Of a DNA stretch of 64,000 nucleotides, positions 2,271-40,798 are shown piece by piece; position 1 is the first letter of the stretch, and each line of letters begins with the position of its first letter. The DNA comes from Escherichia phage vB_EcoS_MM-1. The notes beneath the pieces are model-generated. The model made no database searches and was not told the DNA's origin. It saw nothing but the letters and a program-made list of their open reading frames with translations. The DNA lies in the sequence record PV577657. One strand, given 5' to 3'. The translations under genes were made by a program, and so were the position numbers.

Positions 2271-2359
2271 TGGCGGAAGAAGTGGGAATCGAACCCACAA
2301 GGCTATATTTCAAACCGACAGATTAGCAATCTGCTGCAATACCGTTATGCTATTCTTCC
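2271..2359 (-). tRNA. tRNA-Ser (anticodon GCU), class II
   Basis: Acceptor GGAAGAA/TTCTTCC, anticodon arm GCAGA-UUGCUAA-UCUGU, long variable arm, T-arm GTGGG/TTCGATT/CCCAC. Confidence 0.6.
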
Positions 2360-2380
2360 GAATTTATAAGATATATTATA

Positions 2381-2902
2381 TTAGAAATTTAGCTTCATAG
2401 CAAGAAAATTTTTCAAGTTTTCGGTAGACATCTCATCCACATCTACGGGAGAAACAAAGCCGTTTAATTTTCTAGCAAATTTTTCACCCGCAGGATCGTT
2501 GTCTCCGACAGCTACCAATTTAAAAGGTAATAATTTCAGTTGCTTTAATAACGCTTTTCCTGGAGAAGAACCTAACATTGCCAGGGCTGGATAACCAGCG
2601 TTATGTAGCGCAACTGCCTTAAATACAGATTCAGCGATCAATACTACTTTTTCATCTCCATTGAGAGTTTCTAGTCCCCATACACACTGGGTAGTAGAAT
2701 AAGTAAAATATTTAGCTTCAAAGGGACACTTACCATGACCTTTTGGAGCAGAAGGATTATACGTCTGATAGCCTCGCAACATCCCGGAGAAGTCATACAA
2801 CGGGACTGTTAGCCATCCTTCCGGACTTAACCAGCAATGATATTTATCTGTATCAAATCCTCTGGATAAGAGGTGCTGTGTTAGCTCATCAACATTCATA
2901 TT
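2381..2902 (-). CDS. Toprim-domain protein (stand-alone primase-like/nuclease-like fold)
   Basis: Conserved Glu (IAES) and GDNDPAG DxD motif; likely start MNVDELTQ after GAGAGGAA RBS. Confidence 0.6.
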   Translation of the reverse strand, partial: NMNVDELTQHLLSRGFDTDKYHCWLSPEGWLTVPLYDFSGMLRGYQTYNPSAPKGHGKCPFEAKYFTYSTTQCVWGLETLNGDEKVVLIAESVFKAVALHNAGYPALAMLGSSPGKALLKQLKLLPFKLVAVGDNDPAGEKFARKLNGFVSPVDVDEMSTENLKNFLAMKLNF

Positions 2903-2904
2903 TG

Positions 2905-2990
2905 GTTCCTCTCTCAAATTTATAGATATATTATACAGAGAATTTAGCATTCAAGCAATCAAATTTTTTAACTTTTTAGAGGAAAATCAT
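2905..2990 (-). promoter_or_regulatory. T5-type early promoter
   Basis: Minus-strand TTGCTT -17- TATAAT, then conserved ATCTATAAATTTGAGAGAGGAA. Confidence 0.6.
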
Positions 2991-3069
2991 AGGGCACTTA
3001 AGGGTAGCAGATAAGTGGGGAGGACCAAAATTTGTGACCCCACTAAAAATCCGGGGGCAATTTTTAAAG

Positions 3070-3110
3070 ACCCCTTGACATTTTCGCTGGGGTAGTGTAA
3101 AGTATATGTT
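3070..3110 (+). promoter_or_regulatory. sigma70-like promoter of counter-oriented island
   Basis: TTGACA at 3075-3080; AT-rich -10 candidates 17-23 bp downstream. Confidence 0.4.
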
Positions 3111-3165
3111 ATGGATGAGTGATCAAAGAGACACACATTTTCTATATACTAGGAGGTGTCAAAAT

Positions 3166-4155
3166 ATGACAGAAGAAGTAGCTAAGAGTCCTGAGACCGT
3201 CGCTAGCGTTGCAGCAGAACTGCACCGTCACGAGGAATCAGATAAGAAAAAGTGGGAGAAGGTCAGAGCCTACGAAGAAAAACATCGTGAACACGATGAT
3301 GAAGAAGAAGATGACGATGATGAACATTGTCATAAATATGGAAAACATAAAATGCAAGAACCAGTAAACGTATTCACTAGTGGCTTCCCTGGCCTACTGG
3401 GTGGTTACCCAGCAAACGCAGGTGCTTTCGGTGGTGAAGGTATGGGACTATTCGGAGCTATCCTAATCGGTGCTCTATTAACCGGCGGATTCGGTGGTTT
3501 CGGTGGATTCGGTGGACGTGGTGTAGTTGGTGAAGGTACCGCAGTTGATGCAGTACTTCAGAACCAAGATACCGCTAGTATTCTAGCAGCTATCAACACT
3601 ACTCGTACAGAGGCTAACCAGGGTACTGGAGCTGTTTTAAGCGCAGTTAACAATGGTTTTAGCCAGACAACCCAAAACCAGAGCCGTGATACTCAGTCTG
3701 TACTAACTACGATCTACGGTACAGATGCTAATCTGTCTAATCAGATCTGCCAGGAAACTCGCAACGTTATTCAGGGTCAGTTCGATCTTTCTCGCCAGAT
3801 TGATCAATCTTTCGCAGCTAACCAGATAGCTCGTGCACAAGATAAGTTTGATTCTGCACAGATCGCTTTCCAGCAGACTTTACAAACTAATAACCAGTTT
3901 GCCGCTGTTCAGGCTCAGATGTGTGCTAACCAGAACTCTCTGGAACGTCAGATCGCTGAATGTTGCTGTGAACTTCAGACTGCGATCGCTGGTGTAACTA
4001 CTGCGCGTATCCAGGATGAGTTAGACGCATGTCGCCTACGTGAAGCAATCGCTGCGGGTAGCGGTGCTAACGGTCAGGTAATTAATCAAATCGCTTTAAG
4101 TCTTGGTGCTATCACTCAGACTCTGGCTGGTCTGCAGGCTAAACTGCCGGCTTAA
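3166..4155 (+). CDS. acidic N-terminus / Gly-zipper hydrophobic segment / Q,N,T-rich coiled-coil protein
   Basis: AGGAGG RBS before MTEEV; D/E-rich N-terminus with HCH motif; GGFGGFGGFGG segment; host-optimal codons. Confidence 0.7.
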   Translation: MTEEVAKSPETVASVAAELHRHEESDKKKWEKVRAYEEKHREHDDEEEDDDDEHCHKYGKHKMQEPVNVFTSGFPGLLGGYPANAGAFGGEGMGLFGAILIGALLTGGFGGFGGFGGRGVVGEGTAVDAVLQNQDTASILAAINTTRTEANQGTGAVLSAVNNGFSQTTQNQSRDTQSVLTTIYGTDANLSNQICQETRNVIQGQFDLSRQIDQSFAANQIARAQDKFDSAQIAFQQTLQTNNQFAAVQAQMCANQNSLERQIAECCCELQTAIAGVTTARIQDELDACRLREAIAAGSGANGQVINQIALSLGAITQTLAGLQAKLPA

Positions 4156-4176
4156 TATTAAGGGGAGGAGCCCATT

Positions 4177-4593
4177 ATGAGTAAATATGGTTTTGTAAAT
4201 AACGGACTTAATCAAAGTATGGGCTCCCAGCAGCCCATTCCGGGTCTGGATAACCCCTACTTACAACAGTTGCAACAGCGTTTAGCAGAAGCGCAACAGA
4301 TGCAGCAACAACTCCAGCAAAACCCTGGAAGTGTGAGTCCTATGCAAATGATGCAGCAAATGAGCGGGCAGTCGCAAATGCCTCAACAAATGCAGCAACA
4401 GGTGCCTCAGCAGCAAGTTCAGCAACAAACCCAACAACCGCAGGTTTCTGCGGAAGGACAGGCAGTACTAGCCCTTTTCGAAGACTTCGCAAAGACAGAG
4501 GATGGGAAACAGCTTGTATCACTTATGGGTAAGTTTAATAGCTTCTGCCAAAGCCAAGTTGCAAAAGCTCAAAATGGGGGTAGTAACTCCTAA
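4177..4593 (+). CDS. glutamine-rich low-complexity protein
   Basis: 138 aa, long Q-rich tracts (QQMQQQLQQ..., QQVPQQQVQQQTQQPQ); strong RBS GGGGAGGAG. Confidence 0.7.
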   Translation: MSKYGFVNNGLNQSMGSQQPIPGLDNPYLQQLQQRLAEAQQMQQQLQQNPGSVSPMQMMQQMSGQSQMPQQMQQQVPQQQVQQQTQQPQVSAEGQAVLALFEDFAKTEDGKQLVSLMGKFNSFCQSQVAKAQNGGSNS

Positions 4594-4602
4594 GGAGGAA
4601 AT

Positions 4603-4797
4603 ATGTGTTGCAGAAAATCTGTTTCGTGCTGCCCAGTGCCTGTAGCACGTTGTTGCTCTCCAGCAATGTTTACGCAAATACCGGCGTTCAATCCCTTTGC
4701 CTTTAAGCCTACTCTTATCCTGCCCCCTAGAGTAGATTTTCAGTCAAGATTGGCCTCCCGTATGGGTGGTTGCTGTACACCGAGAGTATGGTTCTAA
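4603..4797 (+). CDS. small Cys-doublet-rich protein
   Basis: 64 aa with four CC doublets; RBS TAAGGAGG; directly precedes terminator. Confidence 0.55.
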   Translation: MCCRKSVSCCPVPVARCCSPAMFTQIPAFNPFAFKPTLILPPRVDFQSRLASRMGGCCTPRVWF

Positions 4798-4810
4798 ACC
4801 AAAAACAAAA

Positions 4811-4843
4811 GCCCCTGCCGAAAGGTAAGGGGCTTTTTCTTTT
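4811..4843 (+). terminator. rho-independent terminator
   Basis: GCCCCTGCC..GGTAAGGGGC hairpin followed by TTTTTCTTTT. Confidence 0.7.
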
Positions 4844-4850
4844 GCCTTAA

Positions 4851-4888
4851 ATACAGAAAAGCCCGCGCTCTCGTAGGAAACGCGGGCT
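4851..4888 (-). terminator. rho-independent terminator for SPFH gene
   Basis: GCCCGCG...CGCGGGC hairpin; T-run on minus strand. Confidence 0.65.
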
Positions 4889-4912
4889 TGGTTCGAAGAT
4901 TACGTGTAACTA

Positions 4913-5860
4913 TTACTTGTTACGCATATCCATGATCATTTGACCATCGTAGCCAGTACCTACCACAGTCTGAGGTACACCACCTTGATACTTCTGAGCA
5001 CGGATCATTTCAACTTCCAGTTGTTTCCAACGAATCATTTCAGGAGTAATGGTACGTTGCAATGCGGCGTTAGCTTCAGCTTCTTTCTTAGCTGCGTACA
5101 GTTTAGCATCTGCGTCACGTTCATTAGCAATAGCTTGGTTGTTACGAGCTTCACGATCTGCTTCTGCTTGTTTAACTTTTTGCTGTGCTTCCTGTTCAAC
5201 GCGAGCAAGTTCAGCTTTCGCAGCATTAACTTGCTCTTCACGAACTTTGGTATTCTGTACCTGTTCCATGATTACTGGCGGCAAGGTAATATCCTGAAGG
5301 AATACCTGCTTAACTGTGTAACCATATGGGCGCGCATACTCTTCAACTTCCTGTTGAATTGCAGTTTGCAATTGAGCCTGAATTTTAGCATCAAATAAAT
5401 CTTGTGCTTTAGGTACAGACTTACCAAACTCACGAATAGTAGACAGTAATTTTTCAGTTACATACTTGTCTAGTGCCTGATCCTGAGTACCTGCGTTAAT
5501 ACGGTTAATCGGTGCTTTAGAACCATCAAACTGCAACATAACAGTCAGGTCAACAGTGGATTTAAACTTATCCTGGCTAGGAACCTGAAGTTTATCTAAT
5601 TTTACAGCAATATCTTTTGTACTAAAAGTATCGAAAGATGCAAACGGGTTTACAAGATGGAAGCCCGGCAATACTGGATTAGGGTCTACTTTACCCAGGA
5701 ATGTTTGGGTTTTAACCGTACCATCAGAAACAATAGTATATGAATTAAAAGCTAGGATTAAACCTGCTAAACCAACTACAGCACCAATACCCCAACGTTT
5801 AATAGTACGAATTACTTTCTGCTCAGAAGTCAGTTCTTTCATATTTTTAGTAGCAAACAT
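4913..5860 (-). CDS. SPFH/band-7 (prohibitin/HflC-like) membrane protein
   Basis: N-terminal TM segment (WGIGAVVGLAGLILAF), SPFH-like core, C-terminal A/E/K/Q-rich coiled coil. Confidence 0.75.
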   Translation of the reverse strand: MFATKNMKELTSEQKVIRTIKRWGIGAVVGLAGLILAFNSYTIVSDGTVKTQTFLGKVDPNPVLPGFHLVNPFASFDTFSTKDIAVKLDKLQVPSQDKFKSTVDLTVMLQFDGSKAPINRINAGTQDQALDKYVTEKLLSTIREFGKSVPKAQDLFDAKIQAQLQTAIQQEVEEYARPYGYTVKQVFLQDITLPPVIMEQVQNTKVREEQVNAAKAELARVEQEAQQKVKQAEADREARNNQAIANERDADAKLYAAKKEAEANAALQRTITPEMIRWKQLEVEMIRAQKYQGGVPQTVVGTGYDGQMIMDMRNK

Positions 5861-5894
5861 ATATTTCCTTTGTTTTAGTTACAGTTAATAAAAT

Positions 5895-5969
5895 TGGCCG
5901 AGGTGACAGGATTCGAACCTGCATAAAGGAATTTAGAAGACTCCTGCCTCTCCCTTAGACTACACCCCG
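5895..5969 (-). tRNA. tRNA-Arg (anticodon UCU)
   Basis: Acceptor CGGGGTG/CACCTCG (1 mismatch), anticodon arm GGAGU-CUUCUAA-AUUCC, T-loop TTCGAAT, encoded CCA. Confidence 0.55.
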
Positions 5970-6472
5970 TTTAAGTATTTTTAAGAACTCTCGTAAAAAC
6001 TCTTAAAAATACAGACGATACCGGGAGAGTCATAAGTCTCACTCATTAAGTATTTCAAGACAAAATACAGTAACGTCTATTATTTTCCAGTTTAAGTCAG
6101 GGTGACTTAGTGGTTATGTCCTGCGGTATATTGAGGACTCGGTTAGGCTTGGGGTCATGACTTCCCACCTTTTGCTGCTACTCAACAGGAGTTATCGCGA
6201 ATTACCTGTGCTATTGTGCACCATTAGTGACATCTCTCATGTCAGCATTTCCCACTTTGTGGATAGCTTGAAAAACTACTCCGATATGGAGAAAGAACTT
6301 CACTATCCTAGAATACCTTCTAAAGTTCTTCTTTAGCCTGGACATAGTTAAATCGTAATAAAACTATTCAGCAGACTGGTTGGTTAGTCTGGAACCAACT
6401 ACCGCGTGGTTTAGGCAGTGCGCAACTAACCTCGGAAGCTTTTATGTTAAAAGCATCAGTTATCCAGTTCTT

Positions 6473-6545
6473 ACCGACCGTAGGATTCGAACCTACATCT
6501 TCCACCAGTTACGGCTTGATAATACCAATTATACTAGGACGGCAG
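6473..6545 (-). tRNA. tRNA-like element (perfect T-arm, no clean anticodon arm)
   Basis: GTAGG/TTCGAAT/CCTAC T-arm with partial acceptor pairing; possibly degenerate. Confidence 0.35.
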
Positions 6546-6744
6546 TGTTACTACATAAGTGATTTCCACACCCCACTATTTATAAATCAGAGAAGAGTTT
6601 AGGGGAGAGGTTTCAGACGCCTCATTTTACACGTTCTAGCCACTAACCGGGATTGCCGCCCCCTGTGTACTAGTTTTACAACTAACCCACCGACTCTATT
6701 CAATGCGCTCCGGTTGGGATTCTGCACTCAGCGTAATCGGCTCG

Positions 6745-6800
6745 CTGTTCCCTAATTTATGAATATATTATACAGAATTTATAAGCATTTAGCAAATGAA
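6745..6800 (-). promoter_or_regulatory. T5-type early promoter driving leftward transcript into noncoding/tRNA region
   Basis: Minus strand TTGCTA -17- TATAAT then ATATTCATAAATTAG. Confidence 0.55.
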
Positions 6801-6803
6801 TTT

Positions 6804-7238
6804 TTAGAAAAATTCACTAGCAATCAAAGCAGTTGTTTTACCGTCATAACGTCCGGGAAATTCTGCCTTAATAGTTTTCATTAATAGAGCTTTGGTAATA
6901 CCTGGGTTTAATTTAACCAGTTCTGCAAAATACTCACGAATCTGAACCTCAGTCAGTTGACTTGGCTGATACTCTTGCAGCATGGAATAAAGCAGTTGCT
7001 CATAGTCTACATCAGTAGGAACTTCCATACCAACTTTAATAGCGCGTTGTTTTGCATTTTCTAGAGCCTTAATCTGAGCTTTCAGATAGGCTACGAACTC
7101 GGTTCGAGTAACAATGTCTTTATCAATACGTTGCAGATCACCAATCATGGTCTGAAGATTAAGTGCCCGTTCCTTATCACCGTGAGTACGTGCTAGACTA
7201 AGTAGTGCACGAAGGGTCATTAGAATATTTTCACCCAT
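6804..7238 (-). CDS. hypothetical protein
   Basis: 144-aa ORF, no recognised motif. Confidence 0.7.
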   Translation of the reverse strand: MGENILMTLRALLSLARTHGDKERALNLQTMIGDLQRIDKDIVTRTEFVAYLKAQIKALENAKQRAIKVGMEVPTDVDYEQLLYSMLQEYQPSQLTEVQIREYFAELVKLNPGITKALLMKTIKAEFPGRYDGKTTALIASEFF

Positions 7239-30633: not shown

Positions 30634-31044
30634 ATGACTACTCCAACTCAGTGGACTGATGAACTGTTCGAAAAAATGTCTTCCGAATACGTTGCTCGTA
30701 TGGAGCAATTCCCAGAGGATGAACGTCCGGGTGTTAGCATGGAAATTGTTAGCGAAATTGCCCAGGAAAATGGTGTAACTCCGAACGGTTTTCGTATGAA
30801 GCTGACTAAAGCAGGTTTGTATATCAAGAAAGCTGCTGGCTCTGCTTCTAAATCTAGCGCATCTACTGGAGAAAAGGCTTCTGGTGGTTCTCGTACCTCC
30901 AAAGCTCAAGCTCATGCCGATCTTCGTTCAGCATTCTCTGATGCTGGCTTAGCACCGGATTTTCTGGATGATGCAATTATCGATAAACTGACCGGTAAAG
31001 CGGCTGCTCATCTGGCAGAAGCAATCCGAGCTATCACTAAGTAA
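30634..31044 (+). CDS. hypothetical protein, host-optimal codon usage
   Basis: 136-aa ORF; AAGGA RBS. Confidence 0.7.
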   Translation: MTTPTQWTDELFEKMSSEYVARMEQFPEDERPGVSMEIVSEIAQENGVTPNGFRMKLTKAGLYIKKAAGSASKSSASTGEKASGGSRTSKAQAHADLRSAFSDAGLAPDFLDDAIIDKLTGKAAAHLAEAIRAITK

Positions 31045-31080
31045 TTTTTAGATAAATCCACCAACAAAAGGAACACAGTT

Positions 31081-31377
31081 ATGACCAAAGCTGAAATTAT
31101 CGCACAATGTGAAAAATTTGGTGAGTTTTATCTTCATTACGAGAAACTTCGTCAGAAAGGAACCACGTATCTTCAGGGTACGATGGAATTTGATCCAGCC
31201 CAAGATAAATATCTAGCTGAGCGTATTAAACGTGAACGTATTCGTAAAGCGAAAGATGATGAGATCCTTGTCTTCTCTCGTACTAATGATAGCTTCCGTT
31301 TTATTCCTGTCGAAAAAGTCCGTCGTGTGACTAGCCTCCAATCAGAGTTAGATCGTGCTTCTCCAGTAGGCCGATAA
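31081..31377 (+). CDS. hypothetical protein
   Basis: 98-aa ORF followed by terminator. Confidence 0.65.
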   Translation: MTKAEIIAQCEKFGEFYLHYEKLRQKGTTYLQGTMEFDPAQDKYLAERIKRERIRKAKDDEILVFSRTNDSFRFIPVEKVRRVTSLQSELDRASPVGR

Positions 31378-31387
31378 GAAACCAATT

Positions 31388-31412
31388 AGCCCCTATATGG
31401 GGCTTTTTGTGT
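31388..31412 (+). terminator. rho-independent terminator
   Basis: AGCCCC-TATAT-GGGGCT + TTTTTG. Confidence 0.7.
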
Positions 31413-31427
31413 ATTTGGGATATGTAA

Positions 31428-31736
31428 ATGAGCGAACAGGTAAATCAAAACTATGAAGGACACGTTGATGACCAGTCCATCATACTTTGGGAGAAGGAGG
31501 GAGAACAAGTAAGATTAACAGTATCTGAATTTCGTGGGAATCTATACATGGGTATTCGTTACTGGCTTCTTGATATTAATGATGAGTGGTTTCCAACGAA
31601 ATCTGGCTTCTCTTTTCCTTACACCCTAGAAACAACATCACAGCTTTTCTATGCGTTTACACAGATTCTTAGCGAATCTGAGGTTTTACATGAAGTACAG
31701 AAACGAGCTGAAGAACTCAAAGCCAAGAATGCCTAG
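31428..31736 (+). CDS. hypothetical protein
   Basis: 102-aa ORF. Confidence 0.65.
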   Translation: MSEQVNQNYEGHVDDQSIILWEKEGEQVRLTVSEFRGNLYMGIRYWLLDINDEWFPTKSGFSFPYTLETTSQLFYAFTQILSESEVLHEVQKRAEELKAKNA

Positions 31737-31745
31737 TTCTTGGCT
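31711..31745 (+). terminator. rho-independent terminator overlapping stop codon
   Basis: AGCCAAGAA-TGCCTAG-TTCTTGGCT + TTTTTC. Confidence 0.6.
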
Positions 31746-31763
31746 TTTTCTTTATAAATGTAC

Positions 31764-31810
31764 TTGCTTTCAACTCAGTTTTGTTATATAATATTTATAT
31801 AAATTAATGA
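31764..31810 (+). promoter_or_regulatory. T5-type early promoter
   Basis: TTGCTT -17- TATAAT then TTTATATAAATTAATGAGAGGG. Confidence 0.65.
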
Positions 31811-31822
31811 GAGGGTTGCAAA

Positions 31823-32095
31823 GTGAAAAAGATAAGTATAAGTACACTTAAACCTTTCCCGTACATCGGACAGCCTCTTATACTTATGTGGGAGGAGAAG
31901 ATTAATGGGGAAAAGTATACTAAAACTAGAAGTGGGTATAAGCTGACTTCACTTCATTACGAAAAAGAAGTATTAGTAGCTGAAATATACTCTCCGTTGT
32001 CAGATAGGCTAGTAAAAACTACATATTTGCATCGTTGCAAAAATTATACATGGCACGGATCCACTAGACAACCCTCATACTGTGAGGCAGAATAA
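31823..32095 (+). CDS. hypothetical protein
   Basis: 90-aa ORF, GTG start after GAGGG. Confidence 0.6.
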   Translation: MKKISISTLKPFPYIGQPLILMWEEKINGEKYTKTRSGYKLTSLHYEKEVLVAEIYSPLSDRLVKTTYLHRCKNYTWHGSTRQPSYCEAE

Positions 32096-33067
32096 ATGAC
32101 CAATGTAAAAGACTTTATTAAACGCTGTCAAGAAGCATATTATCAAGGTATGTCTTTAATCTCTGACGAAGAATATGATCGTCTGATTAAAAGATTTCCG
32201 TTAGAAGAAGAGATCGGGCCTAAGGGCGATATTCCACATCTGTATCGTATGTATTCTTTACAGAAAGTTTATTATAATCGTGGAGATAAACCCCCGTTTA
32301 ACCCATTAGGTCAGGTAGAAACTGATAAGTTAGATGGTTGTGCAATTTCTCTGTTATATATTAATGGCGAATTTGTTCAAGCACTAACTCGTGGTAACGG
32401 TATTCTAGGGAATGATGTCACAAGCAACGTAAGATTGCTGAACATCCCTAAAAAGATTTCCCAAAAAGTACCTACTCAAATCACTGGTGAAGTTCTAATT
32501 ACAAAAGAAGTAGAAAATAAACGTAACTTTGCCTCTGGTGCTATTAACCTCAAAGATAGTGATGATTTTGTACAACGTATCGGAGAAGGTGGTTTAATCT
32601 TCGTTGCATATGGTATCCAGTGTTCTGCTGAATCTGTAGGTATTACAGAAGCATATTTAAAAGATATGCTTTGGCTGGAGAATGAGAACTTCTTAACAGT
32701 TGTTAATGTGCGTTCTTTCTTTAAATGGATTCCGACGGACGGTAAAGTTGTTCGTATTAATGATAACAACAAATTCTTCCGTGAAGGCTGGACTAATAAA
32801 TTCCCTCGTGGAGCATTCGCTATTAAAGAGGATGAAGAAGGCGAGATTACAACTCTTACTAAAGTTGAATGGCAGGTAGGAGCTTCTGGTAAAGTAACTC
32901 CAGTTGGTTATTTCGAACCGGTAATTATTGATGATGCTACAATTGTTAAAGCGACTCTTAATAACGTTGATTATATTAACTCTCTTGATCTAGAGATCGG
33001 TTGCCAGATTCGAGTGATTCGTGCTGGTGGTGTAATCCCGTGCATAGTAGAGCGAGTATATGATTAA
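32096..33067 (+). CDS. NAD-dependent DNA ligase, N-terminal fragment (adenylation + OB domains)
   Basis: KxDG adenylation motif (DKLDGCAISLLY); ends after OB-fold region; 323 aa. Confidence 0.85.
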   Translation: MTNVKDFIKRCQEAYYQGMSLISDEEYDRLIKRFPLEEEIGPKGDIPHLYRMYSLQKVYYNRGDKPPFNPLGQVETDKLDGCAISLLYINGEFVQALTRGNGILGNDVTSNVRLLNIPKKISQKVPTQITGEVLITKEVENKRNFASGAINLKDSDDFVQRIGEGGLIFVAYGIQCSAESVGITEAYLKDMLWLENENFLTVVNVRSFFKWIPTDGKVVRINDNNKFFREGWTNKFPRGAFAIKEDEEGEITTLTKVEWQVGASGKVTPVGYFEPVIIDDATIVKATLNNVDYINSLDLEIGCQIRVIRAGGVIPCIVERVYD

Positions 33068-33210
33068 TACATAGCCCTTTGCTACCCATCTACCATATCG
33101 GAATTATAAAGTGGTTATTGACATTTTCGCCGCTTAGGTATATACTATTATCATTCAGTTGAGGGATAGAAAGTTATGGCGAGGGTAAGCAAAGTTAGTT
33201 AAAATTGTAG

Positions 33211-33266
33211 TTGCTAAATGCTTAAATACTTGTTATAATATTTATATAAATTGATAAGGAAGAAAT
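33211..33266 (+). promoter_or_regulatory. T5-type promoter inside ligase split
   Basis: TTGCTA -17- TATAAT then ATTTATATAAATTGATAAGGAAG; second TTGACA-17-TATACT at 33116-33145. Confidence 0.6.
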
Positions 33267-34049
33267 TTGATGAAAATCGAAATTCCAACACAATGTCCCT
33301 CTTGTGGTTCTAAGCTAGATCTTGTCAACGGACAATTATTTTGTCGGAATAAGTCCAACTGTCCAGCGCAATCAAGTAAGTTAATTGAGAACTTCTGTAC
33401 AAAAATGAAGTTAAAGGGCTTTGGTCCAAAAACTATTGAAAAGCTGGAGCTGACGAAGATCTCAGAACTATTTTACCTAACCGAAGAAGATTTGGTTAGA
33501 GCCGTGGGTAGCAAGGTTGCCGCTAAGTTAATTAGCGAATTAAATACTAAAGTTCGCGGAGACATTGACTTTGGTTCAGTTCTCGGTTCTTTAGGAATCC
33601 CTCTAATTGGAGAGGTTGCAGCAAAGAAATTATCCCAAAATTGCACTAGCTTCCACGATGTGAAGGCTGACGGCAAGGCTGGAGAAAACTACAAAGCCTG
33701 GCTAAATTCCCCGCAAGGCAAGGATGTTATCGAACTACCGTGGAAATTCTCAACTGGTATTAAGGGCACTAAAGCTGACGTCATCATTACAGATGAATTA
33801 GTTGCCCAGCCAAATGGAATCGCGGTATGTATTACCGGATCTTTGCAAGATTTTGCAAATCGAACGGATGCAACAAACTATTTAGAAAGTCTAGGGTATA
33901 CGGTTAAGAAATCCGTTACCAAAGACGTAAAATACCTGATCTGTGAGGATGAATCAAAACGTTCTTCCTCATCTTATAAGAAAGCCGAAACGAATGGGAT
34001 AGAAATCCTGTCGATTAAAGAACTATTGGAGAAAAATAATAATGTCTAA
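33267..34049 (+). CDS. NAD-dependent DNA ligase, C-terminal fragment (Zn-finger, HhH, BRCT)
   Basis: Starts at LigA-type Zn finger CPSCGS...C..C; HhH-like GIPLIGEVAAKKL; 260 aa. Confidence 0.85.
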   Translation: MMKIEIPTQCPSCGSKLDLVNGQLFCRNKSNCPAQSSKLIENFCTKMKLKGFGPKTIEKLELTKISELFYLTEEDLVRAVGSKVAAKLISELNTKVRGDIDFGSVLGSLGIPLIGEVAAKKLSQNCTSFHDVKADGKAGENYKAWLNSPQGKDVIELPWKFSTGIKGTKADVIITDELVAQPNGIAVCITGSLQDFANRTDATNYLESLGYTVKKSVTKDVKYLICEDESKRSSSSYKKAETNGIEILSIKELLEKNNNV

Positions 34050-34809
34050 ACTGAACTGGAACGTAGAAGGTGTAACCGAGTCTCTGAAAGCAAAAGCCAC
34101 TGCTCTGGGTGTTTCTGTAATCTCTCAAGAACAAGTAGCTGCTATCGCTGCTGAACTGGCTGCTGAAACTGGCAAAGATGTTACTGCTCGCTCTGTTGGC
34201 TCTAAACTGCGTAAAGAAGGTTTTGAAGTACAGAAAGCTAACGAAGTACAGAAATCCCCGTGGACTCCTGAGCAGGAAGCTGAACTGGTTGATTTCCTGA
34301 ACGCTCATGCTGGTCAGTATACCTATGCTGAAATCGCTGCTGCTGTAGCTGGTGGTCAGTTCGGTGCTAAACAGGTACAGGGTAAGATCCTGAGTCTGGA
34401 AATGACCGCTTCTGTTAAACCAACTGAAAAAGCTGCTGCTGTTCGTTCCTTTACTCCGGATGAAGAAACTGATTTTGTTAATCAGGTTGTTGCTGGTGCT
34501 ACTATTGAAGCTATCGCTGCTCACTTCGGTCGTAATATCAAGCAGATCCGTGGTAAAGCTCTGAGCCTGCTTCGTGAAGGTCGTATCGCTGCTATGCCGG
34601 TACAGGAAACTTCCAGTGCTAAAACTCGTGAAGATCTGTTAGAAGGTCTGGATCTGGTTAACATGACTGTTGCTGAGATCGCTGAGAAAACTGGTAAGTC
34701 TGAGCGCGGTGTTAAATCTATGCTGTCTCGTCGTGGTCTGGTTGCTAAGGACTATGATGGTGCCGCTAAGCGTGCTAAACTGGATGCAAAAGCTGCGGCT
34801 GCTGAATAA
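34042..34809 (+). CDS. DNA-binding protein with four tandem HTH-like repeats (D5-like)
   Basis: Four internal repeats of about 40 aa; Ala-rich; host-optimal codons. Confidence 0.65.
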   Translation: MSKLNWNVEGVTESLKAKATALGVSVISQEQVAAIAAELAAETGKDVTARSVGSKLRKEGFEVQKANEVQKSPWTPEQEAELVDFLNAHAGQYTYAEIAAAVAGGQFGAKQVQGKILSLEMTASVKPTEKAAAVRSFTPDEETDFVNQVVAGATIEAIAAHFGRNIKQIRGKALSLLREGRIAAMPVQETSSAKTREDLLEGLDLVNMTVAEIAEKTGKSERGVKSMLSRRGLVAKDYDGAAKRAKLDAKAAAAE

Positions 34810-34825
34810 TCTGGTAAATTAAACC

Positions 34826-34860
34826 TAAGGGGAGGGGGCTATGCTCCTTCCCCTTTTTGC
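34826..34860 (+). terminator. rho-independent terminator
   Basis: AAGGGGAGGGGG...CTCCTTCCCCTT hairpin + TTTT. Confidence 0.65.
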
Positions 34861-34891
34861 ATTTAGAAGGCACGAAAGCGTGCAAAGGAGA

Positions 34892-36364
34892 ATGACCTTG
34901 TTTAACGTGCAAGCTGTAGTGTTGAAGATGCTTCTAGCTTCTGAACAGAAGCAAATAGCATTGGAAACATTCTCAAAACTGCATAAAGATCATTTTAATG
35001 ACGCTTTCTCCTCAATTTACCAAGCCGTCCAGAATTATTATAAAAAATATAACACAATGCCGTCCATTGACGCACTGATGCTTGAGGCTAATAGGAACGC
35101 CCGCCTTTCTCAAGCTCTAGTCGTTTTAGCTAACACTCAAATTCCAGAAGTGAGCATGGAACAGGCACTTGAAGTCCTAGAGGCCGAATATACACAGGAT
35201 TTATTCCTAAAGCTTCTAGAAACAGACGTGCTTCAAGATTTAACAATGCTGGATCAGGGAGAAATTCTCAACCGAGTTGCCTCCCTTCACTTAAAATTAG
35301 AAGAGAAAGTAACGAATACTGGAAAAGTATTCAACGCAGATAACATGCGTATTTTCCAGAGAGAAGAAGATACCAAACTGAACCTAATCGCTCTTGGTAT
35401 TTGTAATGAGTTCGACGCTCAAATTGGTTTAGCTCGCACAGAAACGTTACTGCTTGGTGGTTGGCGTGGTACTGGTAAATCCATTATCTGTTCAAACATA
35501 CAGGTTCAGCAATATTTGAATGGAGATATTGCTCCATACTTCTCAATTGAGATGAAAGAACATGAAGTATTTAGACGTAATCTAGCCATGCTAGCTGGTG
35601 TATCAGCACTAGCAATGCGTAATAATACTCTAGAAGGTGCAGCTCTGTTGAGACTAGCCAGAACTAGAGCTAGGATGTTCAACGGTGGTGAAGAGCTTTT
35701 CGATAACTTCGTTAAACAGTATACAATGGCTAAGATGAGTGATTTCTACGATATGGAGAGTAAGCTAATAGAAGGGTATGAGCTACATACTCCTATGATT
35801 ATTGTTTATGACCCTGAGTTGTCTATTACAACAGTTGACGTAGAATTAAATAAATTAGTTGCTAGATATGGTGATAAAGTTACAGTAGCTCTACTTGACT
35901 ATATTAACCAAACCCGACTTCCAGACTCTAAAACCATTGATATGTATGACTGGAAAGAACAGATGGTTGTTAGCTCGTCTTTCAAATCTATCTGCCAGAA
36001 ACATAACGTGGCTGGCGTAGCTCCTTACCAGATCGATCAAGACGGTAGAACACGTATGTCAAAGGGGATTCTTGATTCCGCAGACATGGCTGCTAATCTT
36101 AATGCTGCAAAAGCTGATAATGGTCAAGGTGCTATTATGTTTGACTTCGTTAAGACTCGTTCTTCTGATAGCGTGAAGTTTATGCCTAAAATGAACTGGG
36201 AAACTCTGCGAATGGATAACACTACCAACCTAGCAATGGAAGATATATCTCAAATGGAAGCTGAGTTCGTTATCCCTATTGAGAAGGATAAGCCGGCTCA
36301 ACCTAAACGTGCTAAGAAAGACAAAGCTGAAAATTCAACAGGTGAACAGGCCAGCGATATATGA
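34892..36364 (+). CDS. replicative helicase (DnaB/RecA-fold ATPase-like)
   Basis: Walker A GGWRGTGKS; start at MTLFNV after AAAGGAG (ORF-track 34841 overlaps terminator). Confidence 0.65.
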   Translation: MTLFNVQAVVLKMLLASEQKQIALETFSKLHKDHFNDAFSSIYQAVQNYYKKYNTMPSIDALMLEANRNARLSQALVVLANTQIPEVSMEQALEVLEAEYTQDLFLKLLETDVLQDLTMLDQGEILNRVASLHLKLEEKVTNTGKVFNADNMRIFQREEDTKLNLIALGICNEFDAQIGLARTETLLLGGWRGTGKSIICSNIQVQQYLNGDIAPYFSIEMKEHEVFRRNLAMLAGVSALAMRNNTLEGAALLRLARTRARMFNGGEELFDNFVKQYTMAKMSDFYDMESKLIEGYELHTPMIIVYDPELSITTVDVELNKLVARYGDKVTVALLDYINQTRLPDSKTIDMYDWKEQMVVSSSFKSICQKHNVAGVAPYQIDQDGRTRMSKGILDSADMAANLNAAKADNGQGAIMFDFVKTRSSDSVKFMPKMNWETLRMDNTTNLAMEDISQMEAEFVIPIEKDKPAQPKRAKKDKAENSTGEQASDI

Positions 36365-36894
36365 TAACACAGGAAAGGCTAAAAGAGTTATTTGATTACT
36401 CCCCAGGAACTGGGGAGTTTACTAGAAAAGTATCTAGAGGTAATCAGAAAGCTGGTAGTATAGCTGGTTCTTTAAGAAAAGATGATTATATATGTATATG
36501 GGTAGATGGAAAGCCTTACTATGCGCATCAACTAGCTTTTCTCTATATGGAAGGTTATTTACCTGAAGAAGTAGACCATATAAACCGTATACGAAGTGAT
36601 AATCGTTGGGTTAACCTTAAAGATTCTTCTCACCAAGAGAATAGCAGGAATAAAGCAGCTAAAAGTAAATCAGGGTATATAGGAGTTAGTTGGAATAAAC
36701 AAAGGCAAAAATGGCAAGTTCAACTAAGAGATACCAATAAAAAGAAAATATTCGGTGGATATTTTGAGTACCAGAATTTAGAATCAGCAGTAGATAAGAT
36801 TAATAATCTACGATTACAATTTCATGGGGAAAATGCTATTCAAGAAATATTCGACCCGTCTAATTATCCTGCATTAGAGGAGATAAATTCATGA
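36361..36894 (+). CDS. HNH homing endonuclease
   Basis: VDHINRIRSDNRWVNL HNH motif; overlaps helicase stop and primase start. Confidence 0.8.
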   Translation: MITQERLKELFDYSPGTGEFTRKVSRGNQKAGSIAGSLRKDDYICIWVDGKPYYAHQLAFLYMEGYLPEEVDHINRIRSDNRWVNLKDSSHQENSRNKAAKSKSGYIGVSWNKQRQKWQVQLRDTNKKKIFGGYFEYQNLESAVDKINNLRLQFHGENAIQEIFDPSNYPALEEINS

Positions 36895-37781
36895 GTAGAA
36901 TAACAGAATTACTTGATCTTAAGGGAATTGAGTATAAAGATACTGGTGGAGATATTTTAATCTGTTGCTTAAATCCATATCATGATGATAAACACCCAAG
37001 TTTGCGTATTGATCCTGAAACCGGGATTATGCACTGCTTGAGTTGCGGTTTTGGCAAAGGTATACCTAGTATTTATCATTATTTTAATGAGACTCAATAT
37101 AGACAATCTCCAAGACTATCCCAAGTACGTAAAAAGATTTCAGAGATTAGAAATGGATCTACGAATCTTGCAATCCCAGAATCTGCCTGCCTTTTCGAAG
37201 GTGATTTCCGAGGTATAAGTTCTAAGACCTTGAAGAAATATTTTGCTTTCCAACACCAAGAGAACTGGGAAGGCAGAATTGTATTCCCAATCACAGATGC
37301 TGTTGGACGCAATATCCTATTTTTGGGTCGTTCTATAAACAGTTCTGCCCCTCCTAAATACTTAGTAAAACCAAAACAGGTTTCACCACCAATTTTCCCT
37401 GTACGATATAATACTCCAGTTCTTATTCTAGTTGAAGGTATCTTTGATATGCTGAACCTAGAGGATAGTGGTATAGACTATGCTTCTTGCTGCTTTGGTA
37501 CACATCAGTTTACTTCAGACAACATTGCAGATAAGTTCAGTCCGTACATTATTGCTGGTGTTAAAGTTGTTGTTATCTTACTAGATAATGATGCTTCTGG
37601 TAATAAAGCTGCACAAGCACTGGCCAAGCTAATTCGTACAAAAACGCGTTTAACACCTGTAGTTGCTAACTTTCTTCTGCCTGAAGGTAAAGACCCAGGT
37701 GACTTAAATAAAGAAGAAATTGATATGTTAGCAAAACGTATTGAAATTTTAGTTGCTGAATCGCTTAAAGATTTGGTATAA
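36891..37781 (+). CDS. DnaG-type DNA primase (CHC2 Zn finger + Toprim)
   Basis: C-x2-H...C-x2-C zinc finger; Toprim EGIFD and LLDNDASG. Confidence 0.85.
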   Translation: MSRITELLDLKGIEYKDTGGDILICCLNPYHDDKHPSLRIDPETGIMHCLSCGFGKGIPSIYHYFNETQYRQSPRLSQVRKKISEIRNGSTNLAIPESACLFEGDFRGISSKTLKKYFAFQHQENWEGRIVFPITDAVGRNILFLGRSINSSAPPKYLVKPKQVSPPIFPVRYNTPVLILVEGIFDMLNLEDSGIDYASCCFGTHQFTSDNIADKFSPYIIAGVKVVVILLDNDASGNKAAQALAKLIRTKTRLTPVVANFLLPEGKDPGDLNKEEIDMLAKRIEILVAESLKDLV

Positions 37782-37807
37782 TAGTCCTAAATAACTGAGG
37801 AGTTACT

Positions 37808-38137
37808 ATGGAATATGTATATATTTATGCGGATGTTCCAGTGTATGATAGTATAACACACAAAGAGGTTAAACTAGAGCGGTTTACAACACTGGAGTCC
37901 CTTAACAAACGAAAGAATTTCCATTTATTTGGTGATCCTAAATTACCTGCATCTTATATTTACTTTAAAGTAAAAGATACAGGTCAAGAGGTATACCTAA
38001 CATATGATTGGGCTGTTGTAGAAAATACTGAGCAATCTATGAAAGCGCTAGATGCTTTTCTGCGCATAGATGAAGAATTTCGGGTACTAGAAAAGCAGCG
38101 CAATGAAATGCGTAAATTACTTCACACATATAAATAG
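37808..38137 (+). CDS. hypothetical protein
   Basis: 109-aa ORF. Confidence 0.6.
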   Translation: MEYVYIYADVPVYDSITHKEVKLERFTTLESLNKRKNFHLFGDPKLPASYIYFKVKDTGQEVYLTYDWAVVENTEQSMKALDAFLRIDEEFRVLEKQRNEMRKLLHTYK

Positions 38138-38140
38138 TAT

Positions 38141-38200
38141 TTGCTATTATCCCAATATTTTGATATAATATATTGGTAAGTTAGAGAAGAAACACTGAAG
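38141..38200 (+). promoter_or_regulatory. T5-type promoter upstream of DNA polymerase
   Basis: TTGCTA -17- TATAAT. Confidence 0.6.
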
Positions 38201-38230
38201 TTATACTTACTTACCAAGAGGAGATTAAAT

Positions 38231-40798
38231 TTGAAAATCGCAGTAGTTGATAAAGCTCTAAATAACACTCGTTACGATAAACATTTCCAGCTATATGGCG
38301 AGGAAGTTGATGTATTTCATATGTGTAACGAGAAGTTATCTGGTCGTTTGCTTAAAAAGCACATTACTATTGGAACACCAGAAAACCCATTTGATCCGAA
38401 TGATTACGATTTTGTTATACTAGTAGGTGCTGAACCTTTCCTGTATTTCGCAGGTAAGAAAGGCATTGGTGACTATACTGGTAAACGTGTAGAGTATAAT
38501 GGATATGCTAACTGGATTGCGAGTATCAGCCCAGCCCAGTTACACTTTAAACCTGAAATGAAACCAGTTTTCGATGCAACAGTAGAAAATATCCACGATA
38601 TTATCAATGGTCGTGAGAAGGTTGCAAAAGCTGGTGATTACCGTCCTATTACTGACCCTGACGAGGCGGAAGAATATATCAAGATGGTGTATAATATGGT
38701 TATCGGACCTGTCGCATTCGACTCCGAAACCTCAGCACTATACTGTCGAGATGGTTATCTGCTTGGTGTTTCTATGTCTCACCAAGAGTATCAGGGTGTA
38801 TATATCGATTCTGATTGTCTCACCGAGGTTGCAGTATATTATCTCCAGAAAATTCTGGATAGTGAAAACCACACTATTGTTTTTCACAACCTGAAGTTTG
38901 ATATGCACTTTTATAAGTACCATCTGGGACTTACTTTTGATAAAGCGCATAAAGAACGCAGGCTCCATGATACTATGTTGCAGCATTATGTTCTAGATGA
39001 ACGTCGTGGTACTCATGGCTTGAAATCTCTAGCAATGAAGTATACCGATATGGGTGACTATGACTTCGAACTAGATAAGTTCAAAGAGGATTACTGCAAA
39101 GCACATAAAATCAAGAAAGAAGATTTCACCTATGATTTAATTCCGTTTGATATTATGTGGCCTTACGCTGCGAAAGATACCGATGCTACCATACGTTTGC
39201 ACAACTTCTTCTTACCAAAAATTGAGAAGAATGAAAAACTTTGTAGTCTGTATTATGATGTCCTAATGCCTGGTTGTGTATTTCTCCAGCGTGTTGAGGA
39301 TCGTGGTGTACCTATTTCTATTGATCGTTTAAAAGAAGCTCAGTACCAGTTAACCCATAATCTGAATAAAGCTCGTGAAAAACTGTATACTTATCCAGAA
39401 GTCGTTCAGCTAGAGAAAGATCAGAACGAAGCGTTTAACCCAAACTCTGTTAAACAACTCCGTGTTCTTCTGTTTGATTATGTTGGCTTAACTCCAACAG
39501 GTAAATTGACGGATACTGGAGCAGATTCTACAGATGCAGAAGCTCTGAACGAATTGTCTACGCAGCATCCAATTGCTAAGACTCTACTAGAGATTCGTAA
39601 GCTAACTAAGCTGATCTCTACTTATGTTGAGAAGATTCTTCTGAGTATTGATGCAGATGGTTGCATTCGTACTGGTTTCCACGAACATATGACTACTTCT
39701 GGTCGTCTGAGTTCTTCCGGTAAACTGAACTTGCAACAGTTACCTCGTGATGAATCTATTATCAAGGGTTGTGTAGTAGCTCCTCCTGGGTATCGTGTAA
39801 TCGCATGGGACTTAACAACTGCGGAAGTTTATTATGCTGCTGTTCTATCTGGTGATAGAAATATGCAACAAGTATTTATCAACATGAGAAATGAACCAGA
39901 TAAATACCCCGACTTCCACTCTAACATCGCACACATGGTATTTAAGCTCCAATGCGAGCCTCGTGATGTTAAAAAGTTATTCCCAGCTCTGCGTCAAGCA
40001 GCTAAAGCAATCACCTTTGGTATTCTGTATGGTTCTGGCCCAGCTAAAGTAGCTCATTCTGTTAACGAAGCTCTTCTGGAACAGGCTGCTAAGACAGGCG
40101 AACCGTTTGTAGAGTGTACGGTTGCAGATGCTAAAGAGTATATAGAAACTTACTTCGGTCAGTTCCCGCAGCTTAAGCGTTGGATTGATAAGTGCCATGA
40201 TCAGATCAAGAATCATGGATTTATCTATAGTCACTTTGGTCGTAAACGTCGTCTGCATAATATCCACTCCGAAGACCGTGGTGTTCAAGGTGAAGAAATC
40301 CGTTCTGGATTTAACGCAATCATTCAGTCTGCTTCTTCTGATAGTCTCCTTTTAGGTGCTGTAGATGCAGATAATGAGATCATTTCTCTTGGCCTAGAAC
40401 AAGAGATGAAGATTGTTATGCTGGTTCACGACTCCGTAGTTGCTATTGTTCGTGAGGATTTGATCGACCAATACAATGAAATCCTAATTCGTAATATTCA
40501 GAAAGACCGCGGTATTAGTATTCCTGGCTGTCCGATTGGTATTGATTCAGATTCTGAAGCTGGAGGTTCTCGCGACTACTCTTGTGGTAAGATGAAGAAA
40601 CAGCACCCATCAATCGCTTGTATTGATGATGATGAATATACTCGTTATGTCAAGGGTGTATTACTTGATGCAGAATTCGAGTATAAGAAACTAGCTGCAA
40701 TGGATAAAGAGCATCCAGATCATAGCAAATACAAGGATGATAAGTTTATTGCTGTATGTAAAGATTTGGATAACGTGAGAAGGATTCTCGGTGCTTGA
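38231..40798 (+). CDS. family A DNA polymerase with 3'-5' exonuclease domain
   Basis: TTG start after AAGAGGAGA; exo and Pol A motifs; 855 aa, matching my recollection of T5 DNA polymerase. Confidence 0.9.
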   Translation: MKIAVVDKALNNTRYDKHFQLYGEEVDVFHMCNEKLSGRLLKKHITIGTPENPFDPNDYDFVILVGAEPFLYFAGKKGIGDYTGKRVEYNGYANWIASISPAQLHFKPEMKPVFDATVENIHDIINGREKVAKAGDYRPITDPDEAEEYIKMVYNMVIGPVAFDSETSALYCRDGYLLGVSMSHQEYQGVYIDSDCLTEVAVYYLQKILDSENHTIVFHNLKFDMHFYKYHLGLTFDKAHKERRLHDTMLQHYVLDERRGTHGLKSLAMKYTDMGDYDFELDKFKEDYCKAHKIKKEDFTYDLIPFDIMWPYAAKDTDATIRLHNFFLPKIEKNEKLCSLYYDVLMPGCVFLQRVEDRGVPISIDRLKEAQYQLTHNLNKAREKLYTYPEVVQLEKDQNEAFNPNSVKQLRVLLFDYVGLTPTGKLTDTGADSTDAEALNELSTQHPIAKTLLEIRKLTKLISTYVEKILLSIDADGCIRTGFHEHMTTSGRLSSSGKLNLQQLPRDESIIKGCVVAPPGYRVIAWDLTTAEVYYAAVLSGDRNMQQVFINMRNEPDKYPDFHSNIAHMVFKLQCEPRDVKKLFPALRQAAKAITFGILYGSGPAKVAHSVNEALLEQAAKTGEPFVECTVADAKEYIETYFGQFPQLKRWIDKCHDQIKNHGFIYSHFGRKRRLHNIHSEDRGVQGEEIRSGFNAIIQSASSDSLLLGAVDADNEIISLGLEQEMKIVMLVHDSVVAIVREDLIDQYNEILIRNIQKDRGISIPGCPIGIDSDSEAGGSRDYSCGKMKKQHPSIACIDDDEYTRYVKGVLLDAEFEYKKLAAMDKEHPDHSKYKDDKFIAVCKDLDNVRRILGA

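Follow-up and report, generated by a model that had tools for sequence, protein, structure and literature searches.

The stretch of Escherichia phage vB_EcoS_MM-1 DNA analysed here (record PV577657; 64,000 nucleotides, referred to as the window) contains at 3075-4846 a self-contained plus-strand unit of three genes, which are called A, B and C in the following. This island is homologous to the T5.077-079 operon of phage T5 and is enclosed by its own sigma-70 promoter and a strong terminator. Alignments and the model of a homologue indicate that its main product, the A protein, probably forms a helical rod which is anchored in the membrane and carries an invariant triple cysteine. As a tentative interpretation we favour a complex that A would form with B and C early in infection, a dispensable coiled-coil assembly anchored in the membrane which may act on the cell envelope.

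An autonomous and dispensable operon

The island is 100% identical to the corresponding stretch of Escherichia phage vB_EcoS_MM-2 and 97-99.9% identical to that of many Tequintavirus genomes. Because of this near-identity the window can be assigned to a T5-like phage. The following features define the island and its right boundary:

3075-3103, plus strand: promoter (TTGACA, 17 nt, TAAAGT; 10/12 matches in a consensus scan), equal to T5 promoter P12
3166-4155, plus strand: gene A, T5.077 homologue, 329 amino acids (open reading frame, depositors' start, Shine-Dalgarno sequence)
4177-4593, plus strand: gene B, T5.078 homologue, 138 amino acids (open reading frame; PHROG 7894)
4603-4797, plus strand: gene C, T5.079 homologue, 64 amino acids (open reading frame, Shine-Dalgarno sequence, conserved in relatives)
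4800-4846 (hairpin 4798-4850), plus strand: Rho-independent terminator of the island, hairpin and U-run (-22.8 kcal/mol, z = -4.52)
4859-4889, minus strand: terminator of the convergent SPFH gene (terminator scan, 12-pair stem), the right boundary of the island, with no part in its function

Each gene is preceded by a strong Shine-Dalgarno sequence (AGGAGG at 3151-3156 for A, GGAGGA 3' of 4164 for B and AAGGAGG at 4592-4598 for C). The start of gene A is the ATG at 3166, though the first ATG of this open reading frame lies at 3106; all depositors use the ATG behind AGGAGG. The neighbours, a Toprim gene (2381-2950), an SPFH/Band 7 gene (4913-5860) and tRNAs, are all encoded on the minus strand. 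A preliminary description of this DNA, which was made from the letters alone, had seen three rightward genes with their own promoter and terminator inside a leftward block. That layout is borne out by the open reading frames, the promoter scan, the hairpin and the T5 record. The latter already annotates promoter P12 as well as T5.077, T5.078 and T5.079, each as 'hypothetical protein', and it calls the island terminator an 'efficient bidirectional rho-independent transcription terminator'. The anatomy of the island is real, its autonomy as an operon is established, and T5.077-079 were already known as genes. No paper on T5.077-079 was found in the literature.

The island genes have a GC content of 0.47-0.48 (GC at third codon positions 0.35-0.45) in comparison to 0.39 for the whole window, which agrees with the elevated GC noted before; amino-acid composition accounts for part of the excess. 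The host-optimal codon usage that had been attributed to all three genes holds for gene A only, in which GGT (24/34), CGT (9/13) and CAG (24/31) as well as GCT and ACT are favoured, while CTG is used merely in 7 of 23 cases. Gene B is rich in CAA (21, versus 17 CAG) and gene C uses AGA for four of its six Arg codons. The suggestion of abundant proteins was built on this bias, which is seen in A alone, and is not sustained. In a search of positions 2300-7000 against Rfam, tRNAs and sub-threshold terminator-like matches were the only results, with no structured RNA family on the island.

The possibility that the island might be accessory among T5-like genomes had been raised as well, and the distribution agrees with it. 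With the island and both flanking genes as query 441 T5-like phage records were matched. About 213-217 of them contain the complete stretch; in about half the island is missing and the flanks lie adjacent to each other. The Tequintaviruses Shivani, SA001, Gostya9 and JLBYU43 and the Epseptimaviruses S114, RA40 and polluks are, among others, of this second kind. At least two kinds of deletion scar with differing endpoints could be identified. In Shivani the -10 element and the leader of the island are kept up to window position 3136 and are followed by the terminator region from 4845. In Gostya9 and S114 position ~3009 is joined to the middle of gene C via a GTAGCA microhomology, and two gene C fragments remain. 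As the empty sites are scars of deletions that differ in their endpoints, the island was ancestral and its loss occurred several times in independent events. With a promoter and terminator of its own, variable presence among close relatives and a deviant GC content, the island qualifies as a phage moron or autonomous accessory transcription unit.

The viable laboratory variant T5Mos carries a deletion of 30661-38625 (PMC11464382). In T5 coordinates this deletion takes promoter P12 (37954-38028) together with the first ~560 nt of T5.077 (38064-39029); 16 tRNA genes are missing from T5Mos as well. Since T5Mos is viable without P12 and the 5' part of T5.077, the T5.077-079 operon is dispensable for growth on E. 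coli K-12.

The CCC-rod family and its partners

The A protein begins with an acidic N-domain (residues 1-85; net charge -10 over 85 amino acids, seven His and an HCH motif), which is followed by a glycine-zipper hydrophobic segment at about 87-113 with the sequence GGFGGFGGFGG. Of its seven Cys, those in the rod are located at 195, 253, 266-268 (CCC) and 289. The composition is thus as first described. Among relatives of A the Gly-rich hydrophobic segment and the CCC motif are conserved, the HCH motif and the acidic tract are not.

A belongs over its full length (residues 1-329) to PHROG 8119 (E = 1.1e-203). Its homologues, which fall into 26 clusters with identities as low as 35%, are located on T5-like contigs about 110 kb in length. 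The exceptions are one short form and L008, which is another phage type with much higher GC in which A lies beside the terminase gene. A scan of viral contigs with the A sequence returned T5-like loci only. When an A profile was compared to 1.84 billion representative proteins, 193 matches with E < 1e-3 were obtained, 27 of them with E < 1e-10. Most of these proteins are short forms of 240-290 amino acids, which are devoid of the acidic N-domain and carry the Gly-rich hydrophobic segment at their start. Three positional motifs are common to the family, namely NFTTLSSINGLGRD, LNSFN and CCCE(I/L)K...DG.ATRALIN, the last of which reads CCCELQTAIAGVTTARIQDEL in A. The triple cysteine occurs in 74 of the 80 members that were aligned, with a median distance of 66 residues to the C-terminus. 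The 'CCC-rod' family is defined here by three features, a hydrophobic segment rich in Gly, an extended helical domain, and CCC with (D/A)G..T(R/A).(L/I) behind it about 66 residues from the C-terminus. Alignments, profile matches and the rod model place A in this family.

Family members map to PHROGs 8119, 9288 and 16490, all of them without annotated function, and no paper citing the PHROG identifiers of the A family or of B was found. Among one genome per species for 185,579 bacterial and archaeal species a single 2-kb contig of a metagenome-assembled genome matched in the tighter alignment. The A family is essentially confined to phage genomes. A tblastn search with a short form yielded 182 cultured phage records, which include Seuratvirus, Nonagvirus, T1-like Drexlerviridae, phages of Yersinia, Klebsiella and Enterobacter, eiAU and T5-like Epseptimaviruses. 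New here are the unity of PHROGs 8119, 9288 and 16490 as one family, its breadth, the CCC signature, the rod fold and the synteny close to fibre and lysis genes.

Short forms of the 9288 type (L048 4309-5019, L049 3842-4549, L037 3068-3640) end in a Pro/Thr linker with terminal Cys, PTPPTPPTGCC or GCCGC, a further vicinal-cysteine motif at the distal tip of the rod. His-rich acidic tracts recur as well, with HHYHHHHHEH in P0013 and P0015 and His-rich N-domains in P0163 and P0172.

Hydropathy analysis revealed one segment of transmembrane grade in A, GLFGAILIGALLTGGFGGF (KD19 = 1.72), and none in B and C, so that the earlier idea of a membrane-embedded protein is a reasonable one. The short form P0300 could be modelled with AF2 from a 56-sequence alignment with an overall predicted local distance difference test (pLDDT) value of 74 and with values of 85-95 over residues 83-251. 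These residues form one uninterrupted alpha-helix, while the Gly-rich N-terminus was left unmodelled. About 170 helix residues correspond to a rod of ~25 nm in the short form; for A about 190 residues, or ~28 nm, are expected. As judged from the model, such a single exposed helix almost certainly forms an oligomeric coiled coil. Foldseek found no match of the short-form rod in the PDB, as expected of a single long helix. Sequence searches of the PDB with single sequences and profiles gave insignificant coiled-coil or compositional matches only (FBXO4, HA2, Cry6Aa, vimentin). The resemblance to HA2 of influenza, a class I fusion protein, consists of a Gly-rich hydrophobic segment (GLFGAILIGALL versus GLFGAIAGFIE in HA2) ahead of a long helix. 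However, the phmmer E values of 0.76-1 are insignificant and compositional, there is no evidence of trimer, hairpin or fusion, and A of T5 has an extra 85-residue N-domain ahead of the segment.

The B protein is assigned to PHROG 7894 (E = 1.1e-79), and its homologues fall into 127 clusters, all in the same phage group. It was rightly described as a Q-rich protein of 138 residues, 38 of which (27.5%) are Gln. An alignment of four divergent orthologues shows a conserved N-terminal helix, YLQQLQQRL.EAQ..QQQL, and a conserved C-terminal domain of about 40 amino acids, EGQAVLALFEEFAKTEDGKQLVS.MGKFNSFCQS, with an invariant Cys124. Between them lies a Q-rich linker, which varies in length and is short and Pro-rich in the relatives L004 and L005. 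In several records, for example those of ESCO40, EH3, UTK0010 and HMD-P5, B is labelled 'cAMP-dependent protein kinase catalytic subunit'. No kinase domain was found in B with Pfam, and the label is most likely a poly-Q annotation artefact.

The C peptide has no PHROG. It starts with MCCRKS and contains eight Cys in four CC doublets (2-3, 9-10, 17-18 and 57-58), as stated in the preliminary description, along with nine Pro and a net charge of +7. Its maximal KD19 is 0.97, and it has no transmembrane segment, signal peptide or lipobox. C is intact with exactly 64 amino acids in 22 T5-like loci and is better conserved than A; in L027 only three differences in C are found versus an A of 73% identity. 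Variable sites are distributed over codon positions 1, 2 and 3 as 6/7/12, and Cys codons vary synonymously only. Cys-rich peptides with an MC start follow A-B in L004, L005, L008, L032 and L034. In the window only one of 134 ATG open reading frames of 35-100 amino acids starts with MC and has at least four Cys, and this is C. The sequence conservation of C-like peptides is weak. All of them begin with MCC (or MCGC), have a second CC and are basic and Pro-rich, and NPF(L/A)F is often present. The Cys share is about 7-13% (12.5% in C), and the number of Cys ranges from 4 to 8 between lineages. These comparisons show that C is a real gene. The alternative of a spurious open reading frame was rejected in view of the conservation across lineages, the strong Shine-Dalgarno sequence and the codon-position pattern. 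The reality and conservation of this type of peptide are new, as is the evidence from deletion scars. The former idea of C as a Cys-doublet partner holds in so far as C is a genuine partner peptide; lipidation does not, as signal peptide and lipobox are missing.

All divergent long-form loci have their genes arranged as A-B-C, and this arrangement is found in five divergent lineages including one non-T5 phage of different GC. The trio is one unit, in which B and C co-evolve with A. Each protein has conserved Cys, namely CCC in A, Cys124 in B and MCC plus CC in C. In Pfam, NCBIfam and PADLOC no match was obtained for A, B and C, and the same is true for the partners of the short forms.

Genomic neighbourhoods and possible functions

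In DanielBernoulli, CAjan, STP-SP5, eiAU and polluks the short form is located where the tail module ends, as the first gene 3' of the lateral tail-fibre gene. For CAjan and polluks it was confirmed that the upstream gene encodes a fibre, and this fibre-side synteny covers Tlsvirus, Seuratvirus, eiAU and Epseptimavirus. The short form heads a conserved cassette with phrog_9157, phrog_8329 and phrog_7239, which have no assigned functions. In CAjan and STP-SP5 the cassette closes with a C-like peptide of 67-69 amino acids, MCGN..CC.... In Epseptimavirus the short-form copy is a pseudogene (polluks, L047 4794-5400) with an in-frame stop after residue 109, CCC changed to YCC, and more stops; the Epseptimaviruses with the decayed short form are also without the A-B-C island. 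In metagenomic contigs other members are found near lysis genes. In L006 the neighbour is a VanY peptidase, in the crAss-like contig L040 a GH19 lysin and a holin-like gene, and in L041 an Amidase_3 gene. In L032 a full long-form A-B-C trio directly follows Rz-like spanin, endolysin and Rz-like spanin genes. The complete lysis cassette of eiAU is located 19 kb from its short-form copy.

Some further observations concern these cassettes. In Seurat (L046 910-3204) the C-terminus of the fibre protein gp21 is identical in kind to that of the phrog_8329 protein of STP-SP5 and CAjan. Through a fibre swap or deletion the fibre gene has become joined to the 3' part of the 8329 gene; the A-like and phrog_9157 genes are gone, and gp22 (phrog_7239) and the Cys-rich gp23 are left. 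The phrog_9157 proteins (L035 5541-5906, L037 3710-4075, L048 5051-5398), encoded by the second gene of the cassette, have a His-rich N-terminus and end in E..E...EL.DLAAA. This end is reminiscent of MazG-like all-alpha NTP pyrophosphohydrolases, although Pfam gave no match. KurtStettler (MZ501091) is a 58.5-kb phage with a Seuratvirus-like peptide match. It is labelled 'Bas33' in the supporting text of PMC8594841, Bas33 being a Tequintavirus in PMC13250531, so that this number is probably a typing error.

In the complex that we favour, A would be a single-pass or membrane-inserted protein, in which the glycine-zipper segment probably drives oligomerisation. The remainder of A would form a coiled-coil rod of about 25-28 nm with Cys-Cys-Cys about 66 residues from its distal end. 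B may be a soluble adaptor with one invariant Cys, and C a small basic peptide that is rich in Pro, with Cys-Cys at its N-terminus and CC doublets further on. Because B and C co-evolve with A, we suppose that they assemble physically with A into a thiol-dependent complex, bridged by metal or disulfides, at the inner membrane. An early accessory envelope activity, for example conditioning against superinfection or a modulation of lysis, is suggested by the recurring fibre and lysis neighbourhoods, by the patchy distribution and by the early promoter of the T5 operon. A canonical role as holin, endolysin or spanin, or a role in the virion, would not be part of it. Among specific versions of such a role, superinfection exclusion comes first, ahead of a lysis-modulating or spanin-like device and a soft-metal or thiol complex, each with a low probability.

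Several observations weigh against this reading. A model of A itself, calculated with AF2 from 14 sequences, reached a pLDDT of 46.6 only; its long helices at 134-170 and 176-324 are of low confidence and the model is unusable. The Gly-rich segment of 9288-type short forms is only weakly hydrophobic, and membrane anchoring may not be universal. In the 80 aligned members hardly any Lys or Arg is found in the acidic stretch on the N-terminal side of the hydrophobic core, and a conserved Arg/Lys follows the core. An excess of Lys and Arg is found on the C side in 48 members and on the N side in three. This positive-inside bias modestly favours a placement of the rod and its thiols in the cytoplasm (N-out/C-in) and weakens the picture of an envelope-spanning rod. 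A C-in rod would fit the missing export signals of B and C, but A of T5 would then need to translocate its acidic N-domain of 85 residues. The opposite orientation, N-in/C-out, would fit the width of the periplasm, which at about 21-25 nm is near the rod length. The link between A and C is imperfect as well, as C-like open reading frames are missing from most short-form loci and in Seurat a C-like peptide is retained though the A-like gene has gone. Sites at the end of a tail module or beside lysis genes are generic slots for accessory cargo. Finally, no homology of A, B or C to a characterised protein was found in Pfam, NCBIfam, PADLOC and the PDB, as the preliminary description had anticipated in assigning no characterised function, and the proposed function is inferred from architecture and neighbourhood alone.

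An exclusion or self-protection device, an early membrane complex that would block DNA entry or adsorption-linked steps of competing or own-progeny phages and would be a functional analogue of T4 Imm/Sp or T5 Llp, is a rather less probable explanation. It agrees with the early promoter and the predicted membrane anchor and with the patchy presence and repeated loss among close relatives. At least four siphophage lineages, moreover, have short forms in synteny with the lateral tail-fibre locus, a hypervariable host-range locus that is a typical site of exclusion genes such as cor. Like T4 Imm and Sp, the T4 antiholins RI and RIII and T5 Llp, the island is early, has a predicted envelope site, is nonessential in the laboratory, is patchily distributed and has its own regulatory signals. 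In contrast, those are single small proteins without a 25-28 nm coiled coil or vicinal-cysteine motifs and have no homology to the island. No similarity to known exclusion proteins or PADLOC models was detected (none in Pfam and PHROG, no families in PADLOC), the need for B, C and the conserved cysteines is left unexplained, and the neighbourhood evidence is generic. We consider it unlikely that the island is a lysis accessory. In such a spanin-like device A would be N-in/C-out with its 25-28 nm rod across the periplasm, as an oversized i-spanin or antiholin, C would resemble an o-spanin, and envelope disruption or lysis timing would be modulated. As in the Rz/Rz1-type spanins of lambda, an N-anchored larger protein with a hydrophobic anchor, a long helix and conserved Cys is encoded near a small Pro- and Cys-rich protein, members adjoin lysis genes in L006, L040, L041 and L032, and the rod is roughly as long as the periplasm is wide. 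Against this, C has neither signal peptide nor lipobox, B lies between A and C, the rod of A is about twice as long as Rz, sequence similarity is absent, and the T5 unit lies in the tRNA/early region under an early sigma-70 promoter, distant from the lysis cassette. Relatives without the island and T5Mos are viable, and T5-like phages, eiAU and L032 encode canonical spanins of their own. An i-spanin would have an N-terminal transmembrane domain, oriented N-in/C-out, and a periplasmic coiled coil; A has a transmembrane-grade segment and a long helix, but also an N-domain of 85 residues and a C-in charge bias, which favours a cytoplasmic rod. T5-like phages have their own holin, endolysin and spanins (PMC4342426), and the T5 holin is a homologue of T4 gpt which is encoded elsewhere. 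Neither Pfam nor PHROG nor NCBIfam gave a holin match for A, B or C. A canonical spanin role was rejected, in view of the missing lipobox in C, the other spanins, the dispensability and the early promoter.

No better a candidate than the lysis device, in our opinion, is a module for soft metals of the Zn, Cu or Ni type. Here metal would be bound at the membrane by CCC and the His/Asp/Glu-rich N-domain of A, the Cys of B and CC/CXC of C, and the glycine-zipper oligomer would maybe serve as a conduit. The conserved cysteine motifs of all three proteins, described as vicinal, point in this direction, as do the recurrent His-rich acidic tracts and the His-rich phrog_9157 partners of the short forms. 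With B and C devoid of export signals and a positive-inside bias in A, the Cys-bearing rod would moreover lie in the reducing cytoplasm. However, metal-binding families were not matched. A metallothionein-like or vicinal-cysteine binder would have a high density of Cys in CC/CXC motifs; C-like peptides contain CC/CXC and A contains CCC, yet Cys make up about 7-13% only, just 12.5% in C, and vary from 4 to 8 across lineages. The His-rich tract is poorly conserved and missing from some long forms, and a gain for a virulent phage is not obvious. A tail-fibre accessory, either an assembly factor or a virion-associated component, is very unlikely. The position of the short forms directly after the lateral fibre gene in the five phages named above would fit, and one short form is annotated in BASEL as 'putative sugar-binding protein'. 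The T5 long form is unlikely to act in the virion or in fibre assembly because of its early, separate location, with an early promoter and distant from the tail genes. It is dispensable in plaque-forming phages, and the Epseptimavirus copy is a pseudogene. The fibres STP-SP5 ORF2 and polluks_39 have S74-type intramolecular chaperone ends, and fibres with such ends should need no separate chaperone. A condensate- or amyloid-forming Q/N-rich module, as initially suggested, is highly improbable. The Gln content of B, the Q/N/T-rich C-domain of A and the resemblance of GGFGGFGG to low-complexity FG or glycine-rich tracts speak for it. But the Q tract of B is a variable linker, largely absent and replaced by Pro-rich sequence in L004/L005, where the flanking helices are conserved, and the Q/N/T-rich region of A is predicted as a regular long helix, with high confidence in the model of the homologue. 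The positional motifs of A (NFTTLSSINGLGRD, CCCE.K, TRALIN) are unexpected in composition-driven prion-like domains.

Flanking region and significance

The right edge of the island coincides with one of the genomic nick sites of T5, since the T5 record places a 'major DNA single-chain interruption' directly 3' of the island terminator. GCGC at 4865-4868, inside the hairpin of the SPFH gene terminator, is the equivalent of the major nick-site consensus of T5 (Pu-pGCGC). The SPFH/Band 7 neighbour (4913-5860, minus strand; Pfam E = 2e-17) is T5.080, which many records call 'lipoprotein'. It is independent of the island because it is kept in all island-less relatives. The left neighbour (2381-2950, minus strand) is annotated as 'DNA primase' and is merely a Toprim-domain protein of 189 amino acids (Pfam Toprim_2, E = 2.6e-5). 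Epseptimaviruses have a gene for a NadR-type NMN adenylyltransferase at its position, which indicates that the left flank is itself a variable junction. A GTG open reading frame of 49 amino acids (2987-3136, minus strand) overlaps the island promoter. It is a coding sequence in MM-2 and PS3-1 and absent from the T5/BB1 annotation; it looks spurious, and no supporting evidence was seen. Rfam also revealed a second tRNA-like element at 6472-6543 (minus strand, 35.5 bits), which is unreported by ARAGORN and labelled 'tRNA-OTHER' in MM-2. It falls into a stretch (about 5970-6700) which the T5 record calls 'RNAX, stable RNA with unknown functions'.

This operon belongs to a classic model phage and has been annotated since the T5 genome was sequenced, without a function or literature that we could find. 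It is the tip of a large phage-only family, which occurs in hundreds of cultured coliphages and phages of Salmonella, Yersinia and Klebsiella from therapy collections as well as in crAss-like contigs. The family has a simple and testable signature, which consists of a membrane anchor, an invariant triple cysteine and a helical rod about 25 nm long, and isogenic pairs exist already in T5 versus T5Mos and in Tequintaviruses with and without the island. A bolder and rather improbable generalisation is that of a widespread and hitherto unnoticed phage device, a coiled-coil 'ruler' of 25-28 nm anchored in the inner membrane. With a ring of three Cys per chain and peptides with N-terminal Cys-Cys it would be bridged by metal or disulfides, and would either span the periplasm or reach equally far into the cytoplasm; A-B-C would be an elaborated, early-expressed version of it. 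Its role in the envelope would go beyond holins, spanins, disruptins and known exclusion proteins. If true, this would explain the association of the family with tail-fibre and lysis loci in siphophages, T5-like phages and crAss-like phages alike. An envelope-directed function of the island, if true, would add a new component to the way in which virulent phages handle the Gram-negative envelope; otherwise the island would be an ordinary accessory cassette.

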